NCBI RefSeq assembly: GCF_039654945.1
Contig: NW_027361814.1
Location: 2,666,001-2,730,000 of the forward strand
Direction: 5' to 3'
DNA length: 64,000 nt
Source of the DNA: Dendrobates tinctorius
Taxonomy: Eukaryota
Shown here piece by piece: positions 31,019-56,500 of the stretch (its first letter is position 1; each line of letters starts with the position of its first letter). The position numbers and the translations under genes are program-made. The notes beneath the pieces were generated by a model. That model was given only the letters and a program-made list of their open reading frames with translations. It was not told the origin of the DNA and ran no database searches.

Positions 31019-33817
31019 CAGTATGGACGCAGGCAGCCTAATAAGCAGGACTGCTGCACAGTGCACACACAAAAGGGTGGAAAATTGAACGCTTGGTAAC
31101 TGTGCAGAAAAGAGGAAGAAAAGTATTTTTGCTTTTAAAAAAGCAGTTTGCACAGCAGTGTGCAAACAGCAATGCAGCTATCAGGGAGCCTTATAAGGCA
31201 GCCTAATAACCAACAGAGCTGATGCACAAAAAATAGAGCCTCCCCTGTCACTGCACACAAAGTGTTGTGTTGTAAGTGTAAATCACTACCAGCAGAAGCA
31301 GTTTTTTGGTTCTTCATCCCTGCCTGACGCTCTCCCTTATTCAGAATCAGCAGCATCAGCAGCTCTCCCTATGCTAAGATCGGCATAAGTAAGATGGCGG
31401 TCGGCGTTCACGCCCTTTTATAGCCCTTTTATAGTGACCGATGCCTATGTCATCGCATTGCCCACAGTGTGCGTCCTCCATCATTGGCTGAAAAAGGGCA
31501 CTGGAAGTATCTTTTGAAACACGACTTTGGCGCTCTGGTCGCTGACCTCGTGGCCGACCTCACGCTATGGTCGGGTTTCGTTTCATGAAACCCGACTTCA
31601 GCGAAAATCGCCAACTTTTGAATATGACCGACCCGTTTCGCTCAACTCTAGTCAAACGCAGTAAACATTGATGTTTTGCATGCCAGCCTTCTTCAGGCCC
31701 TCAGTCTCAACATGAAGGAGGCCTATATGCTGAAATGTAGCTATTTCATGGACTTTGATTGATTCATTGGATAGTTCAACACTGTATGATGCACTTTAAG
31801 AGTATGTGCACATGTTGCAAATTTGTCTGCAGAATTTTCTGCGCAGAATCTGTACCTCTTGGCAGAAAACGCAGGTAAAAATCAGCGCGTTTTTGATGTG
31901 GATTTACATGCATTTTTTTCATGCGGATTGTATGTGTTTTTGTAAGGTAAATAAAGATATGCTATTTAACAAAAAAAAGATTTGTGATGTCATTTCTGGT
32001 CCAACCTCCTCTTTTACATTTGTCCAACCCACACTCCATTACACACACAGTTGGACAGAGAGACAGATAATAATAGATAGATAGATAGATAGATATGGGA
32101 TATATCTATCTATCTATAGATATCTATAGATATCTATCTATAGATATCTATCTATCTATAGATATATCTATAGTAGTGATGAGCGAGCACTAAAATGCTC
32201 ATTGCTCAGGTCAAGCAAATTGGAATACTCGGGTACTCGGACACAACAACGAGCCCAATGTAAGTCTATAGGACACCAGCGCATTTTTACCACGATCCCC
32301 AATTTAAAGGAGCGGGTCTCCTAGACTTGGAATGCCCATACACTAAGAGTGTTGGCTATCAAACATTTTCCCCTATGGGGTACACCTCAACCTTTTCCAT
32401 AACAATTCTTTTACGCCCAGCAAAACCCCCCACCCTTGTTAGGATTTCGAACACATTAACGCTGGTGATCTAGTGGCAGCGGATGATGAGACGTGGAGGA
32501 AGGCTTGATTCAAAACAATGCCAAATTTAAAGGAGCGGGTCACCTAGACTTGGAATGCCCATACACTAAGTGTATGGCATGTCAAACATTTCCTCCTGAG
32601 GGTAGATATCAACATAGTGTGGCCTTTTTGGGGGCAGGTTATCATAAACACCTTGCAAAGCTGTAATGTGCTTTCATACATAGTTGCTGGTGGGAAGGTG
32701 CAGGTTTTTAGTAAAAGTATGGCTGACAAATAGTTGCATGAAGTGATCTGGAAAAGGGTTATGTTGATGACAGGAATTGGAAAGTACATGATTAATAACA
32801 GCAGTGGCTATGGGAGGTATGAGATCCAGGATACAGCCAACAATGATTCGTCGTTTAGCCACTATCAATTACCATATTCGGTTTCACAGTGTACCAGATG
32901 CGCGTGTGAGACTCGTCCTAAGAACTGCCCTTCCAAAATATGTTGCTAAACACGCACGTGTCTGTATAAAGGGCAAAGTGCAACATGTTCGTGAGATGCT
33001 GAATTATACAAAGCAGATCAGTGTAGGAGGAAAACCAAACAAACTGATGGATGCTCGTGAAAAACTAAGTTTAACCCCTTTCCTACATTAGACGTACTGT
33101 TCCATCCATGTGACCTGGGGCCTAAGTCCCAAGGACGGAATAGTACGTCTAGCGCGATCAGCTGCGCTCACGGGGGGAGCGCAGCTGATCGCGGCCGGGT
33201 GTCAGCTGATTATCACAGCTGACATCCGGCACTATGTGTCAGGGGCGGTCACGGACTGCCCCCGACACGTTATCCCCTGGCACACTGCGATCAAACACGA
33301 TCGCAGTGTACCGGGGGTTTAGGGAAGCATCGGGAGGGAGGGGGCTTCCTCCGTGCTTCCCTGAGACCCCCACAGCAGCGCGATGAGCAGCGCTGCTGTG
33401 GGGGTCTCCTTCCCTGCATGTCCCCGAATCCAAAATGGCGGCGGGGACCTACGGGAGCCTGCAGGGAGGCGGCTTCCTCATGCCAGCAAAGCGCTGGCAT
33501 GAGGAAGCCTGCAGCACTGCTTGTGACAGATCGCTGATCTGTCACAGCGATCTGTGATGTGACAGATCAGCGATCTGTCACATGACAGTTATGTCCCCCC
33601 TGGGACATTGTAATAAAGTTTAAAAAAAAAAGTGTAAAAATAATTTATAAAAAAATTGCTAAATAAATAAAAAAAAAATATTTCCTACCAATAAAAACGT
33701 CAACTCGTCCCGCAAAAAATAAGACCTCACATAACTCGGTGGGTCAAAATATGGAAAATTATAGCTCTCAATATGTGGTGATGCAAAAACTATTTTTACA
33801 ATAAAAAGCATCTTTTA

Positions 33818-34261
33818 GGCTAGTTTCACACTAGCGTTTATGAGCGCAGCGACGGCCTGCGCACGGCCGCCGCTAAGCCCCGCCCCCTGCCACGCCCACC
33901 GGTAGCTCCGCCCACCGGCGCATGACGCTGCATGCGCCCTCTATCTTTATCACAGGGGGCGCAGGCCATGCGCAGTATGCGTTTGGCGGCGCATGTGCCT
34001 TTTTGATGGTGCGCCGACGCAACCAAACTGCAGCAGGTTGCGTTTGGCGCAGGTCGACGCACCGTCAAAAGGACGCATGCGCCGCCAAACGCATACTGCG
34101 CACGGCCTGCGCCCCCTGTGATAAAGATAGGGGACGCAGGGCGCATGCAGCGTCATGTGCCAGTGGGCGGAGCTACCGGCGGGGGCGCGGCAGGGGCGGG
34201 GCTTAGCGGCGGCCGTGCGCAGGACGTCGCTGCGCTCATAAACGCTAGTGTGAAACTAGCC
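33818..34261. mobile_element. Foldback Harbinger MITE
   Basis: TTA|GGCTAGTTTCACACTAGCG ... CGCTAGTGTGAAACTAGCC|TTA; arms of ~200 bp are nearly perfect. Confidence 0.92.
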
Positions 34262-34385
34262 TTAGCGTGCGACAGCTGCCAAACATAAAAACCGCCATAA
34301 ATAGTAAATCAAACCCCCCGTTATCACCCCCTTAGTTAGGGAAAAATAATAAAATAAAAAAAATGTATTTATTTCCATTTTCCCA

Positions 34386-34458: not shown

Positions 34459-34848
34459 GGGAATTTTCCACTGTTTTGGCACATCAGGGGCTTTCCAAAC
34501 GCGACATGGCGTTCGATCTCAATTCCAGCCCAAAAAGTCAAATGGCGCTGCTTCCCTTCTGAGCTCTGCCATGCGCCCAAATAGTCGTTTACACCCACAT
34601 ATGGGGTATCAGCGTACTCAGGACAAATTGCACAATAACTTTTGAGGTCCTGTTACTCTTGGGAAAATAACAATTGGGGGTGAAAAGATCATTTTTGTGG
34701 AAAAAATATGATTTTTTAATTGTACCGCTGTGCATTATAAACTTCTGTGAAGCCCTTGGGGGTTCAAAGTGCTCACCACATATCTAGATAAGTTCCTTGG
34801 GGGGTCTAGTTTCCAAAGCTGTTCCATGGCCATCCACTGGGAGCGCAG

Positions 34849-35088
34849 GTGGTCTTCTCTTCCATCCTCCCAGTGGATGGCCATGGAACAAGGAGGTGGA
34901 ATAAGATTCTGCAGGTGAACAACTGGCTACGTCGATGGTGCCGTCAGCAACGATTTGGATTTCTGGATCACGGAGTGAACTACTTATACGATGGACTACT
35001 TGCTAGAGATGGGGTGCACCTTACGAAGACTGGAAAGCATGTATTTGGAAGTCGCCTTGCTACACTTGTAAGGAGAGCTTTAAACTAG
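34849..35088 (+). pseudogene. CR1 ORF1 C-terminal SGNH/esterase fragment
   Basis: VVFSSILP..NNWLRRWC..FGFLDHG..RDGVHL..RALN*. Confidence 0.9.
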
Positions 35089-35267
35089 AACAACATGGGA
35101 AGGGAAGCAAAAGACCAGAAAAAGCCATACACCTGACAAATGCTATTGAGAACTCTGCTATTAGAAGTGGAAAGGAAGAACAAAGACGAAAGAATCTAAT
35201 TAATAAAAATATTGGAGAAAGAGAAACCAATCACAAACTAAAATGTTTCTATACTAATGCACAAAGC

Positions 35268-38000
35268 ATGGGCAACAAACAAGGAGAATTGGAACTACTA
35301 ACACAGGAAAAGAAATATGATGTCATTGGAATCACTGAAACTTGGTGGGACAATACACATGATTGGAATACAAGACTAGAAGGATACAACTTATTTGCAA
35401 GAAACAGACTTGATAAACGAGGAGGGGGTGTCGCATTGTATGTTCGAAACGCGTATATCTGCACAGAGATTGAAGCTTCAGAGACTGGGAGTTCTGTGGA
35501 AACTGTTTGGGTAAGAATACAAGGACAGAACAATGGAAAGGACACCATTGTAGGCATTTACTACAGGCCGCCTGTGCAAGCCGAAGATATAGATGAACTC
35601 TTTATGCATCAGATGGCCAAGTTCTCCAAAAAATATGACATAGTTGTCATGGGAGATTTCAACTATCCAGACATTTGTTGGGAATCTCTCTCAGGCAAAA
35701 CTAACAGGTCAAGGAAATTCTTATCCTCTCTTGCTGACAACTTTATCTTCCAAAAGGTAAGGGAGAAAACAAGGGGAACTGCTACCTTGGATCTAATCCT
35801 TATAAACAGGGAGGAAATGGTTGAGGAGGTAAAAGTGGCTGGGACCCTAGGAGGTAGCGACCATGCTATTTTAGAATTTTGGATAACTAGAGTTGGAAGA
35901 CCTGTGAAGACTCAGACGTCAAGGTTAGATTTCAGAAAGGCAGATTTTAAGGGATTCAGAAAGAGAATTGGAGGGATCCAATGGCTGGATATCCTTAAAG
36001 ACAAAAATGTCCAGGAAGGATGGGAAATCTTGAAAAATGAAATTCTCAAAGCACAGTTGTTAACAATTCCGAAAAGAGGGAAGAATAGGAAGCATTTAAG
36101 GAAACCAGGATGGATGAACACAGAACTTAAGCACATGCTAAAAAGGAAGAAAAAAATGTTTATAAAATGGAAAGAGGGAGGCATATCTAAAGAAGAATAT
36201 AATGCTGTCTGCAGAACCTGCAGGGCACAAATCAGATTAGCTAAAGCTGAAAATGAACTGAGGCTTGCAAGAGATGTCAAAAGCAATAATAAAGGATTTT
36301 GGGGATATGTCAAAAGTAAAAGAAAAGTCAAAGATGCTATAGGATTTTTACAGGATGAAAATGATGAAATGGTAAGACAGGGTGTTGAGAAGGCTGAACT
36401 TTTAAATTCCTATTTTGCATCTGTTTTCTCTCAGAAAGGAAATGCAACATCAACTGTTATTCTCTGTCCTATTAAGGGAATAGAAGAATCCAGGATATCT
36501 ATAAACAGAAAGATAGTGAGGAAACACTTAGCTAACCTAAATGAATTCAAGTCTCCAGGTCCAGATGAATTACACCCCAGAGTACTGAAGGAGATAGCAG
36601 AAGAAATTTTTGAACCCCTCTCCATAATCTTTGAAAATTCTTGGAGAACAGGAGAAGTGCCAGAAGACTGGAGAAGAGCAAATGTTGTTCCTATCTTCAA
36701 AAAGGGGAAGAAGGTGGACCCAGGCAACTATAGGCCGGTGAGTCTGACTTCTATACCAGGAAAGATCTTTGAACAAATTATTAAACAACATGTATGTCAA
36801 TACCTGGATAAGAATGAAGTGATTAAACAGAGTCAGCATGGGTTTGTAACTAATAAGTCATGTCAGACTAACTTAATTTCCTTCTATGACGGTATCACTG
36901 ATTGTGTGGATCAAGGAAATGCTGTAGATATAGTATATCTTGACTTCAGCAAAGCATTTGACAAAGTCTCTCATACAATCCTTATTGAAAAAATGACTAA
37001 GTATGGAATGGACAAGGCAACTGTTAGGTGGATTCATAACTGGCTTAGTGATCGGACCCAAAGAGTGGTCGTAAATGGCTGCACATCCAGTTGGAAGAAT
37101 GTCTCAAGTGGGGTACCACAGGGCTCTGTCCTGGGCCCTGTATTGTTCAACATCTTTATCAACGATTTAGATGAAGGAATTGAGGGTAAACTGATTAAAT
37201 TTGCTGATGACACAAAGCTAGGAGGGATAGCTAATACTAGAGAAGAGAGAGAGAGGATTCAAAAAGATTTAAATAAACTGGAGAAGTGGGCAGCAACTAA
37301 CAGAATGGTTTTTAACAGGGAGAAATGCAAAGTACTACATCTGGGCAATAAAAATGAAAAAAGCATATATAGAATGGGAGGAATAGGGCTAAGTGACAGC
37401 ACATGTGAAAAAGACTTGGGTATACTAATAGATCACAGACTGAATATGAGTCAACAGTGTGATGCAGCAGCAAAAAAGGCAAATGCAATTCTAGGATGTA
37501 TTAACAGAAGCATACAGTCTAGATCACGTGAAGTCATTATTTCCCTCTACTCCTCTTTGGTCAGACCTCATCTGGAATATTGTGTCCAGTTTTGGGCACC
37601 ACATTTTAAAAAAGACATCAACAAACTGGAGCAAGTTCAGAAAAGAGCGACCAGAATGGTGACCGGTCTGCAAACCCTGTCTTATGAGGAAAGGTTGCAG
37701 GATTTGGGAATGTTTAGTTTGCAAAAGAGAAGACTGAGAGGAGACTTAATAGCTGTCTACAAATATCTAAAGGGCTGTCACATTGTAGAAGGATCAACTT
37801 TATTCTCATTTGCACAAGGAAAGACTAGAAGCAATGGGATGAAACTGAATGGGAAGAGACACAGATTAGATATTAGAAAAAACTTTTTGACAGTTAGAGT
37901 GATCAAGGAGTGGAACAGGCTGCCACGAGAAGTGGTGAGCTCTCCTTCAATGGAAGTCTTCAAACAGAGGCTGGACAGACATCTGACTGGGATGATTTAG
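35268..38000 (+). CDS. CR1 ORF2: APE endonuclease + reverse transcriptase (frame open upstream to at least 35079)
   Basis: ITETWW, GDFNYP, GSDH, KSPGPD, NYRPVSL, YLDFSKAFD, GVPQGSVLGP, KFADD; no stops in 910 aa. Confidence 0.96.
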   Translation: MGNKQGELELLTQEKKYDVIGITETWWDNTHDWNTRLEGYNLFARNRLDKRGGGVALYVRNAYICTEIEASETGSSVETVWVRIQGQNNGKDTIVGIYYRPPVQAEDIDELFMHQMAKFSKKYDIVVMGDFNYPDICWESLSGKTNRSRKFLSSLADNFIFQKVREKTRGTATLDLILINREEMVEEVKVAGTLGGSDHAILEFWITRVGRPVKTQTSRLDFRKADFKGFRKRIGGIQWLDILKDKNVQEGWEILKNEILKAQLLTIPKRGKNRKHLRKPGWMNTELKHMLKRKKKMFIKWKEGGISKEEYNAVCRTCRAQIRLAKAENELRLARDVKSNNKGFWGYVKSKRKVKDAIGFLQDENDEMVRQGVEKAELLNSYFASVFSQKGNATSTVILCPIKGIEESRISINRKIVRKHLANLNEFKSPGPDELHPRVLKEIAEEIFEPLSIIFENSWRTGEVPEDWRRANVVPIFKKGKKVDPGNYRPVSLTSIPGKIFEQIIKQHVCQYLDKNEVIKQSQHGFVTNKSCQTNLISFYDGITDCVDQGNAVDIVYLDFSKAFDKVSHTILIEKMTKYGMDKATVRWIHNWLSDRTQRVVVNGCTSSWKNVSSGVPQGSVLGPVLFNIFINDLDEGIEGKLIKFADDTKLGGIANTREERERIQKDLNKLEKWAATNRMVFNREKCKVLHLGNKNEKSIYRMGGIGLSDSTCEKDLGILIDHRLNMSQQCDAAAKKANAILGCINRSIQSRSREVIISLYSSLVRPHLEYCVQFWAPHFKKDINKLEQVQKRATRMVTGLQTLSYEERLQDLGMFSLQKRRLRGDLIAVYKYLKGCHIVEGSTLFSFAQGKTRSNGMKLNGKRHRLDIRKNFLTVRVIKEWNRLPREVVSSPSMEVFKQRLDRHLTGMI

Positions 38001-39329
38001 CGAATCCTGCTTTGAGCAGGGGGTTGGACCAGATGGCCCAGGAGGTCCCTTCCAACTCTACGATTCTATGATTCTATGATTCTATGAAATGGGGTCACTT
38101 ATGGGGTGTTTCCACTGTTTAAGCACATCAGGAGCTCTCCAAACGTGGCATGACATCCGATCTGAATTCCAGCCAATTTTGCAGTGAAAAAGTCAAACGT
38201 CGCTCCTTCCCTTCTGAACTCTGCCATGCGCCCAAACAGTGGCTCCCCCCCACATATCAGGTATCGGCGTACTCAAGACAAATTGCACAATAACTTTTCC
38301 AGTCCAATTTCTCCTGTTACCCTTGGTAAAATAAAAAATTGAACCTGAAGTAATTTTTTTTTGTGAAAAAAAGTTAAATGTTCATTTTTTTAAGCATTCA
38401 AAAAATTCCTGTGAAGCACCTGAAGGGTTAAGAAACTTCTTGAATATGGTTTTGAGCACCTTGAGGGGTGCAGTTTTTAGAATGGTTTCACTTTTGGGTA
38501 TTTTCTATCATATAGACCCTTTAAAGTGACTACAACAAATGTGATATGGTCCCTAAAAATAAAATGAGAAATCGCTGGTCAACTTTTAACCTTTATAACT
38601 TCCTAAAAAAAAAAAATTTGTTTCCAAAATTGTGCTGATGTAAAGTAGACATGTGGGAAATGTTATTTATTAACTATTTTGTGTCACATAACTCTCTGGT
38701 TTAAGGGCATAAAAATTCAAAATTTGAAAATTGCAAAATTTTCAAAATTTTCACCATATTTCCATATTTTTCATAAATAAACTCAAGTTATAGCGAATAA
38801 ATTTTACCACTAAAGGGAAGCAAAATATGTAATGAGAAAACATTCTCAGAATCGCCTAGATCCGTTGAAACGTTCTTGAGTTATTACCTCATAAAGGGAC
38901 AGTGGTCAGAATTGTAAAAATTGGCCCGGGAGATAACGTGCAAACCACCCTTGGTAGTAAAGGGGTTAAAGAGGAGTACACCGTCCGTAACTATAAACAC
39001 ACCCGTGCAACAAGCTTCTTCATCTTCACCCATACATATTACCAATAATATACAAATGTCACAGTCTAAAAATAATTGTGAGTGTAACCAACACAGTTAA
39101 AGGAATGCCACAAAACGTAAATAACCACGACCCTTTGAAAAGCCTGATCTCCTCTTTACGACAAATGGAAGATGATGGTTTTGATCACGACTTAGAAAAT
39201 TTCCACATCCACACCAAGAAGATGAAGATCACAGCTGCAAAAAATGTTTGAAAAAGGCAGTGAATGTCTGGAAAATCATTTTCTCTAGGTCAAAGTTTAC
39301 CTCTTACTAAAGTGGTACCAAATGAGGCA

Positions 39330-53534: not shown

Positions 53535-56500
53535 TGTGGAAAGGCCGGGCTTATGGGGTGGACAACTGCTTACCCTGTTCGGACGCTGCAGACACCAGGC
53601 GACTCAAAGGATGAGGCGGAGACAGATTTCACGTGTAACAGTTCCGGATTTATTCGTCGTCCTCCTGACGACCACTAAACACGCACCGCAGCTTCTTCAC
53701 ACTGTCTCCAGGCCTGGGTACCTGCGCCTTCGTTCCAGTCACAGTAACACACCTCGTGGATCTTTCACTGGGGGCTGTCCTAGACCAATCTACCCCCAGC
53801 GCTTCACCTGTCCAAGGTCGTCGTCCAGTCAGTACCCCCGGGGCCTCACTCTTCCTGTGGTACATCATCTCGCCTGTCCTGCGGTCCGTCGGGTCAGGGC
53901 CACCCCCCTGACTGTCTCTTCTCTGTCCGTCCCCTGGCCGAGCTCTTCGCCCTTCCCTGTCTTCTTCTGAGCTCCTCCCGGGACTAAACTCCTCTCGAGC
54001 CCCGCCTACTTCTATTTATCCCCTCTCTCACAGGGGAATTCCCCTCAGGGGCTCCTATCTCCCCGCCCCCCCATGACTAAGCATATCCTGAGCAATAAGC
54101 TGATGTATAGTCCTACACTACTCTCACCTGCCATCTTGTGGTCACTTAGAATCGTAGAGTTGGAAGGGACCTCCTGGGCCATCTGGTCCAACCCCCTGCT
54201 CAAAGCAGGATTCGCTAAATCATCCCAGTCAGATGTCTGTCCAGCCTCTGTTTGAAGACTTCCATTGAAGGAGAACTCACCACTTCTCGTGGCAGCCTGT
54301 TCCACTCATTGATCACTCTAACTGTCAAAAAGTTTTTTCTAATATCTAATCTGTGTCTCCTCCCATTCAGTTTCATCCCATTGCTTCTAGTCTTTCCTTG
54401 TGCAAATGAGAATAAAGTTGATCCTTCTACAATGTGACAGCCCTTTAGATATTTGTAGACAGCTATTAAGTCTCCTCTCAGTCTTCTCTTTTGCAAACTA
54501 AACATTCCCAAATCCTGCAACCTTTCCTCATAAGACAGGGTTTGCAGACCGGTCACCATTCTGGTCGCTCTTTTCTGAACTTGCTCCAGTTTGTTGATGT
54601 CTTTTTTAAAATGTGGTGCCCAAAACTGGACACAATATTCCAGATGAGGTCTGACCAAAGAGGAGTAGAGGGAAATAATGACTTCACGTGATCTAGACTG
54701 TATGCTTCTGTTAATACATCCTAGAATTGCATTTGCCTTTTTTGCTGCTGCATCACACTGTTGACTCATATTCAGTCTGTGATCTATTAGTATACCCAAG
54801 TCTTTTTCACATGTGCTGTCACTTAGCCCTATTCCTCCCATTCTATATATGCTTTTTCCATTTTTATTGCCCAGATGTAGTACTTTGCATTTCTCCCTGT
54901 TAAAAACCATTCTGTTAGTTGCTGCCCACTTCTCCAGTTTATTTAAATCTTTTTGAATCCTCTCTCTCTCTTCTCTAGTATTAGCTATCCCTCCTAGCTT
55001 TGTGTCATCAGCAAATTTAATCAGTTTACCCTCAATTCCTTCATCTAAATCGTTGATAAAGATGTTGAACAATACAGGGCCCAGGACAGAGCCCTGTGGT
55101 ACCCCACTTGAGACATTCTTCCAACTGGATGTGCAGCCATTTACGACCACTCTTTGGGTCCGATCACTAAGCCAGTTATGAATCCACCTAACAGTTGCCT
55201 TGTCCATTCCATACTTAATCATTTTTTCAATAAGGATTGTATGAGAGACTTTGTCAAATGCTTTGCTGAAGTCAAGATATACTATATCTACAGCATTTCC
55301 TTGATCCACCCAATCAGTGATACCGTCATAGAAGGAAATTAAGTTAGTCTGACACGACTTATTAGTTACAAACCCATGCTGACTCTCTTTAATCACTTCA
55401 TTCTTATCCAGGTATTGACATACATGTTGTTTAATAATTTGTTCAAAGATCTTTCCTGGTATAGAAGTCAGACTCACCGGCCTATAGTTACCTGGGTCCA
55501 CCTTCTTCCCCTTTTTGAAGATAGGAACAACATTTGCTCTTCTCCAGTCTTCTGGCACTTCTCCTGTTCTCCAAGAATTTTCAAAGATTATAGAGAGGGG
55601 TTCAAAAATTTCTTCTGCTATCTCCTTCAGTACTCTGGGGTGTAATTCATCTGGACCTGGAGACTTGAATTCATTTAGGCTAGCTAAGTGTTTCCTCACT
55701 ATCTTTCTGTTTGTAGATATCCTGGATTCTTCTATTCCCTTAATAGGACAGTGAATAACAGTTGATGTTACATTTCCTTTCTGAGAGAAAACAGATGCAA
55801 AATAGGAATTTAAAAGTTCAGCCTTCTCAACATCCTGTCTTACCATTTCATCATTTTCATCCTGTAAAAATCCTATAGCATCTTTGACTTTTCTTTTACT
55901 TTTGACATATACCCAAAATCCTTTATTATTGCTTTTGACATCTCTTGCAAGCCTCAATTCATTTTCAGCTTTAGCTAATCTGATTTGTGCCCTGCAGGTT
56001 CTGCAGACAGCATTATATTCTTCTTTAGATATGCCTCCCTCTTTCCATTTTATAAACATTTTTTTCTTCCTTTTTAGCATGTGCTTAAGTTCTGTGTTCA
56101 TCCATCCTGGTTTCCTTAACTGCTTCCTATTCTTCCCTCTTTTCGGAATTGTTAACAACTGTGCTTTGAGAATTTCATTTTTCAAGATTTCCCATCCTTC
56201 CTGGACATTTTTGTCTTTAAGGATATCCAGCCATTGGATCCCTCCAATTCTCTTTCTGAATCCCTTAAAATCTGCCTTTCTGAAATCTAACCTTGACGTC
56301 TGAGTCTTCACAGGTCTTCCGCCTCTAGTTATCCAAAATTCTAAAATAGCATGGTCGCTACCTCCTAGGGTCCCAGCCACTTTTACCTCCTCAACCATTT
56401 CCTCCCTGTTTATAAGGATTAGATCCAAGGTACTTCTCAGTACTACACCCTCCTATCCTGCCTTTCCTAGCTGTCACCCTGCTATTCTGTCAATCCCCGT

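Follow-up and report, generated by a model that had tools for sequence, protein, structure and literature searches.

A conserved slippery heptamer at the ORF1–ORF2 junction of CR1 retrotransposons as a candidate site of programmed −1 frameshifting

In a 64,000-nucleotide (nt) stretch of the Dendrobates tinctorius genome (contig NW_027361814.1, positions 2,666,001 to 2,730,000; hereafter the window), the plus strand carries a copy of a CR1 long interspersed nuclear element (LINE), whose two open reading frames, ORF1 and ORF2, meet at a seven-base sequence of the type used in −1 ribosomal frameshifting. The 3′ part of ORF1 (34836–35088, plus strand) encodes the C-terminus of an SGNH esterase and ends R-A-L-N-stop, with GCT (35077–35079), TTA (35080–35082), AAC (35083–35085) and TAG (35086–35088) as its last codons. 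The slippery heptamer T-TTA-AAC (35079–35085, plus strand) lies in the X-XXY-YYZ phase of the ORF1 zero frame, as is characteristic of a programmed −1 frameshift site, and directly adjoins the stop codon (35086–35088, plus strand), for which relatives use TAG, TAA or TGA. The combination of TTTAAAC and a stop codon right behind it is unique in the 64 kb, both strands counted, and lies at 35079.

The −1 frame is open for 997 codons from stop to stop (35007–38000) and holds the Pfam domains Exo_endo_phos and RVT_1; counted from the heptamer (35079–38000, plus strand), ORF2 comprises 973 intact codons for an APE endonuclease and a reverse transcriptase. The linker preceding the endonuclease (35079–35237, plus strand) is free of AUG codons and open in the −1 frame only, with four stops in each other frame, and its 52 codons were open in 1.45% of 2000 shuffles. 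The first in-frame ATG, at 35268, is codon 63 counted from the heptamer start, and it lies downstream of the first endonuclease strand, LKCFYTNAQS (35238–35267, plus strand), whose Asn (35256–35258) is kept in 8/8 aligned relatives; from the alignment offset and residue numbering, we take this residue to be the active-site Asn of L1 endonuclease and exonuclease III. The Pfam endonuclease match begins at model position 14, at the Met of 35268. In all these respects (the phase of the heptamer right before the ORF1 stop, the AUG-free ORF2 frame up to 35268, and a first AUG beyond LKCFYTNAQS) the junction is as the first-pass annotation had described it. Four out-of-frame AUGs lie upstream of 35268 (35095, 35140, 35243 and 35257); the first, 6 nt past the stop, opens a 13-codon mini-ORF in the ORF1 frame (35095–35136, plus strand) that would draw scanning ribosomes off ORF2.

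We compared the junction across CR1 elements with an esterase ORF1. Four such families were reached in the home genome (6.36 Gb in 830 contigs), namely F1, to which the window copy belongs, F2, F3 and F4, and 68 metagenome loci were added, whose bird-derived appearance was judged by protein likeness. The junction was readable by profile alignment in 189 of the resulting 238 loci, 20 of them metagenomic, and two further loci were read by eye. The codon test used 24 rows, one per frog family and one for each of the 20 metagenome loci, with deep splits at 44–56% nucleotide identity. Searches with three more distant proteins returned only F4 and one amplified old relative. CR1 relatives were absent from the viral contigs and plasmids searched, and prokaryote genomes gave one weak match, which was excluded.

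The heptamer is conserved beyond amino-acid constraint, as expected of a programmed −1 frameshift site. The terminal Leu codon is TTA in 23/23 readable cases among the 24 rows and ranks first among 45 four- and six-fold degenerate columns, for which the median modal share is 0.54; at the 14 other conserved Leu columns, the commonest codon reaches at most 14/20. The terminal Asn codon is AAC in 22/22, against 13/24 at the other conserved Asn column. The base before TTA is T in 23/24 rows across codons for Ala, Cys, Ser, Gly, Pro and Thr, and clustering at 80% identity leaves TTA at 19/19 and AAC at 18/18. The exact heptamer is present in 20/24 rows; of the four others, three are decayed copies that differ by a single change, and the fourth is F2, which carries G-TTA-AAC in 11/15 loci and A-TTA-AAC in three, the latter likely through CpG decay. 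The stop codon after the heptamer varies (TAG in 19 rows, TAA in two, TGA in two and TGC in one). The check that the first-pass annotation had proposed, namely conservation of the heptamer and its phase across CR1 sequences, thereby gave fixed synonymous positions in the heptamer, in contrast to variable Leu, Asn and Ala columns elsewhere.

The same pattern extends to the protein level. Among 244 proteins, 156 align to the end of ORF1 and 122 stop there; the final two positions of these 122 hold L in 120 and N in 118, down to 31% identity. Eleven forms of residue precede the terminal L-N, and the L-N set includes eel, sturgeon and sawshark entries. The chain of the solved ZfL2-1 esterase stops short of the terminal L-N positions. 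Two distant ORF1 proteins end Q-G-N (P0217, P0244), which could fit an alternative slippery sequence, G-GGA-AAC. One CR1 ORF1 protein is deposited as Klebsiella pneumoniae from a 2.9-kb contig (P0039), likely vertebrate contamination. On comparative grounds, the junction of this well-known element bears a real signal of recoding type that has been conserved over deep splits.

The phase of ORF2 relative to the heptamer is likewise held. The endonuclease lies in the −1 frame in 15/18 readable rows, the three misses being decayed copies, and this phase persists across 12 distinct spacings (98 to 278 nt). Since reinitiation would not fix the phase of ORF2, this constancy speaks for frameshifting. 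The −1 frame is closed one to two codons upstream of the heptamer in 10/24 rows and holds an upstream ATG in 1/24, so ORF2 is entered at or after the heptamer; the same upstream stops and near-absence of ATG rule out an ORF2 start further 5′, in an upstream overlap with ORF1. Counted from the heptamer, intact copies are open in the −1 frame for 973 codons in F1 and 982 codons in F4.

The element itself is a canonical CR1 LINE with an esterase ORF1, as assigned from its domains, tail and homologs. The window ORF1 gives a weak Pfam match to GDSL/SGNH esterase (E 0.01); PF13472 is found on homologs, and a profile matches the ZfL2-1 esterase structure 4C1B (E 2e-34). ORF2 matches PF03372 for the endonuclease (E 2e-16) and PF00078 for the reverse transcriptase (E 2e-36). 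An endonuclease profile built from relatives matches the L1 endonuclease and exonuclease III structures; a PDB search with the endonuclease as a single sequence gave nothing useful. The 3′ untranslated region (UTR; 38001–38087, plus strand) contains a stem-loop, the pyrimidine motif TCCCTTCC at 38046–38053 and three GATTCTAT repeats; this arrangement, a stem-loop followed by 8-nt repeats and no poly(A), fits canonical CR1. Vertebrate canonical CR1 elements with an esterase ORF1 (CR1 subgroup 7, ORF1 type IVB, in the passages of PMC4120745 compared) share the zinc-finger/coiled-coil and SGNH esterase ORF1, the APE-reverse transcriptase ORF2, the 3′ stem-loop with GATTCTAT repeats and frequent 5′ truncation, with no structural difference.

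The window copy is 5′-truncated, its sense match to a full-length copy beginning at ~34836, and therefore cannot itself make full ORF1; the mechanism considered here belongs to full-length source copies, in which ORF1 spans 320 amino acids (aa) in other members of the family. The closest named protein to ORF1 of the full-length copy is from Dendrobates tinctorius (98% identical). Where the insertion is cut short on its 5′ side, it carries an inverted 24-nt copy of ORF1 sequence (34820–34843, minus strand), a fold-back that forms a perfect 24-nt inverted repeat within 34820–34890 and likely arose in 5′ junction formation. A search with the ORF1 end gave 22,646 candidates, and among those scored 150/150 were 100% identical. 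Thirty loci of the family were fetched, picked by protein identity, so that their sameness shows youth and not selection: TTTAAAC is present in 30/30, TAG in 29/30 and the first in-frame Met at codon 63 in 28/30. Three of four copies fetched in full are open for 973 codons from the heptamer, and the family is highly active.

Further copies and neighbours were noted alongside. A more truncated second copy of the same family lies at 54218–56434 (minus strand) and covers ORF2 residues 235–973 at 98% identity, without the junction. Full-length F1 copies have a 5′ UTR of ~114-nt tandem units (L010, 448–700). F2 and F3 are 82% alike in ORF1 and have unrelated-looking 3′ tails (from one F2 copy), which suggests a tail swap; F2 is the family with the variant heptamer. 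An old broken F4-like copy has been amplified to dozens of near-identical places on a few contigs (C75, C123, C144, C357), which places it within an extensive repeat of tandem or segmental type. GC-rich, long palindromic, non-coding elements resembling miniature inverted-repeat transposable elements are nested upstream of the CR1 copy, at 33820–34262 and 33137–33575.

We queried the sequence downstream of the heptamer for a stimulator. The 100 nt downstream in the window fold at −8 kcal/mol (z +1.31), and 183/200 shuffles fold at least as well. No coronavirus-type stem-loop or pseudoknot was found 5–9 nt downstream, in a purine-rich region for which pseudoknots were not folded explicitly. A linear motif is present instead: the G-tract GGG-AA-GGG (35097–35104, plus strand) begins 11 nt past the heptamer, encodes Gly-x-Gly in the −1 frame and constitutes a candidate stimulator. 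G is found at +12, +13 and +14 past the heptamer in 21/23, 22/23 and 22/22 rows, respectively, and a second G-tract occupies +18 to +21, whereas positions +5 to +10 are variable. Such a conserved linear motif ~11 nt downstream is as in the protein-stimulated frameshift of the porcine virus PRRSV, and Gly-x-Gly coding could add to its conservation. The first Gly of the −1-frame Gly-x-Gly is nearly always GGG, a codon that accounts for 14/68 of all Gly in F1 ORF2; this bias speaks for a signal in the RNA. The G-tract is probably bound by a protein. The first-pass annotation had seen no obvious pseudoknot and suggested that the adjacent stop codon may supply the pause; the lack of a stable fold is borne out, and the stop is not the sole candidate, as GGG at +12 to +14 shows roughly the same degree of conservation as the heptamer. 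An intramolecular G-quadruplex in the window's family is unlikely by inspection, only two G-tracts being present.

The G-tract can also pair with the pyrimidine motif in the 3′ tail, over 8 bp in F1. Compared with windows of ORF2, the tail is the best pairing partner in three families, with 0/55 windows as good in F1, 0/54 in F3 and 0/56 in F4; the F2 tail is not, with 33/54 windows as good. Own 3′ tails were not preferred over foreign tails for pairing with the G-tract, and four of five bird-type tails found in flanks have more T in the pyrimidine motif, without covariation. Long-range pairing between the G-tract and the 3′ tail is a weak lead.

Taken together, a model for CR1 expression emerges. 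We consider it likely that the ORF2 protein is made by programmed −1 ribosomal frameshifting on U-UUA-AAC before the ORF1 stop, as the first-pass annotation had proposed in the form of an ORF1–ORF2 fusion; the codon, phase and spacing comparisons support that proposal. Most ribosomes would stop at UAG and release the 320-aa ORF1 protein (ORF1p), while a minority would slip back by one base, re-pairing from UUA AAC to UUU AAA, and continue with CUA GAA CAA. The product would be an ORF1p-linker-endonuclease-reverse transcriptase fusion of ~1,290 aa, and slippage would set a high ratio of ORF1p to ORF2 protein (ORF2p), like that of retroviral Gag to Gag-Pol. The stop codon next to the heptamer, the G-tract 11 nt downstream, or the two together may cause the pause. 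A more specific and rather doubtful proposal is that CR1 makes its enzyme through a structure-free −1 frameshift switched by the G-tract, which would be recognized in trans, by ORF1p or a G-tract-binding protein of the host, or by long-range pairing with the 3′ tail of the element itself, 3 kb distant; reverse transcriptase would then be made from full-length RNA only.

Several observations weigh against frameshifting. AAC alone is not exceptional, because modal shares of 0.89–0.95 are likewise seen at two-fold degenerate Cys, Phe and Asp columns. Each of the 20 bird-type loci is a single decayed copy and some are related to one another, leaving ~seven deep lineages as independent, and the F4 row of the phase count is a copy chosen for being in frame. 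No conserved fold lies downstream, with 1/10 downstream windows better than z −2. An in-frame AUG precedes the endonuclease in 13/15 in-phase rows, 8 of them within codons 3–7. A missing AUG is no proof of frameshifting, because L1 ORF2 initiation is independent of its AUG (passages of PMC5009743), and ORF2p need not be a fusion, because some canonical CR1 lineages have lost ORF1 (passages of PMC13343379). In F4, where the G-tract is a homopolymer of variable length, the 67 unique copies that could be measured include 16 that retain the −1 frame and 37 that are one base short; in-frame and short forms are both represented in the set that departs from the family majority by no more than 0.5%, and two shorter-run copies have an intact ORF2 in another frame. 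Two G8 copies of F4 are open for 982 codons from the heptamer. The length of the run does not track copy age (p 0.38), and slippage at copying or under-calling in long reads would explain the short runs; contigs from independent DNA carry deletions of 1–2 bases at the run at a small share of depth, a measure that contigs cannot give as true shares.

The chief rival is termination-reinitiation, which we regard as unlikely and which may run alongside frameshifting in lineages with a near-stop AUG. [quoted passage not shown] The first-pass annotation had preferred frameshifting to L1-style reinitiation. The window's family indeed has no AUG in the ORF2 frame overlapping or near the stop; among the 15 in-phase rows, however, only this family and one bird-type locus lack an AUG ahead of the endonuclease, the other 13 having one (8/15 at codons 3–7), and AUG-independent reinitiation is compatible with a missing AUG. 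One decayed locus (L102) even has an overlapping TAATG stop-start, SART1 uses UAAUG (PMC3708506), L1 provides the AUG-independent precedent (in the part of PMC5009743 compared), and reinitiation would be the only route for ORF2 expression in F4 copies with short G-runs. Against these points, the AUG varies in position and presence (codon 3, 4, 7, 11, 22, 34 or none), four out-of-frame AUGs precede the first in-frame one in the window's family, the nearest 6 nt past the stop, and reinitiation leaves unexplained both the fixed synonymous bases that match X-XXY-YYZ and the fixed −1 phase.

Two other accounts appear far less probable. The heptamer and G-tract could serve a different purpose at the RNA or DNA level (binding of ORF1p or ORF2p, packaging, or termination efficiency) with ORF2 reached independently, which we hold very unlikely: conservation proves constraint and not its cause, and the role of the G-tract is only putative, yet conservation spans exactly the seven bases of the heptamer and ends at the free positions of the codon upstream, all three stop codons and the G-UUA variant are tolerated, and the conservation is tied to reading phase. 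Still less credible is that the RNA itself is altered around the junction, whether through splicing or through slippage of the polymerase. TAG with G or A behind it looks like a splice acceptor, and F4 G-runs often change length; however, TAA or TGA replaces TAG in 4/24 lineages, so that AG is not kept, and this variation of the stop codon rules out reading TAG as a splice acceptor. In the window's family the junction lacks a long homopolymer, and contigs from three non-genomic-looking runs, presumed to be RNA or of unclear type, span it without a joint or indel, with the reservation that contigs drop rare forms.

Frameshifting at U-UUA-AAC has close counterparts in the ORF1a/1b sites of coronaviruses and arteriviruses (U_UUA_AAC; G_UUA_AAC in equine arteritis virus), with the same heptamers, the same phase and an enzyme ORF in the −1 frame. 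Unlike those sites, no pseudoknot or stem-loop was found at the CR1 junction, the stop is directly adjacent and the host is a genomic LINE. G_UU(A) is the natural shift site of equine arteritis virus (passages of PMC5009743), and the G-TTA-AAC exception in F2 fits frameshifting because that virus uses this form. The nsp2 frameshift of PRRSV is stimulated by nsp1beta and PCBP through a short motif, CCCANCUCC, 11 nt 3′ of the shift site (same source, in part); the CR1 junction is alike in having a short unstructured motif, here a GGG tract, at 11-nt spacing, and unlike in that the motif is G-rich rather than C-rich, the heptamer differs and the binding protein is only hypothetical. Among APE-type non-LTR (long terminal repeat) elements, Dictyostelium TRE5-A and TRE3-A are stated to need a −1 frameshift for ORF2 (passages of PMC5911963); they differ from CR1 in clade and ORF1. 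L1 and SART1 share with CR1 a bicistronic LINE RNA and low-level ORF2; unlike the proposed CR1 route, they make no fusion product, and no slippery heptamer is described in the passages compared. The covered parts of PMC4120745, PMC13343379 and PMC3905857 give no mechanism for ORF2 translation and do not mention frameshifting, CR1 is not mentioned in the covered part of PMC5009743, and no report of CR1 frameshifting was found in the literature searched, which did not extend to Kapitonov and Jurka 2003 or to the chicken and turtle CR1 descriptions of 1997, where the overlap may be mentioned. The CR1 junction would then present a known kind of mechanism, −1 frameshifting, in a new variant setting.

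How the second gene of LINEs is translated is a long-standing question, answered only for a few elements (L1, SART1). In most vertebrates, CR1 dominates among the groups of retrotransposons (passages of PMC13343379). If our reading holds, the predicted N-terminus of CR1 ORF2p would change to that of a Gag-Pol-like fusion carrying the esterase, and the loss of the first endonuclease strand from annotated ORF2s begun at the first AUG would be explained. The junction would also provide a frameshift signal without the usual RNA structure and, should the protein- or tail-stimulated version be true, the first such frameshift in a LINE. The heptamer, the stop and the G-tract make the question of ORF2 translation simply testable, and the young family in the window, with its many identical intact copies, is well suited to that end.

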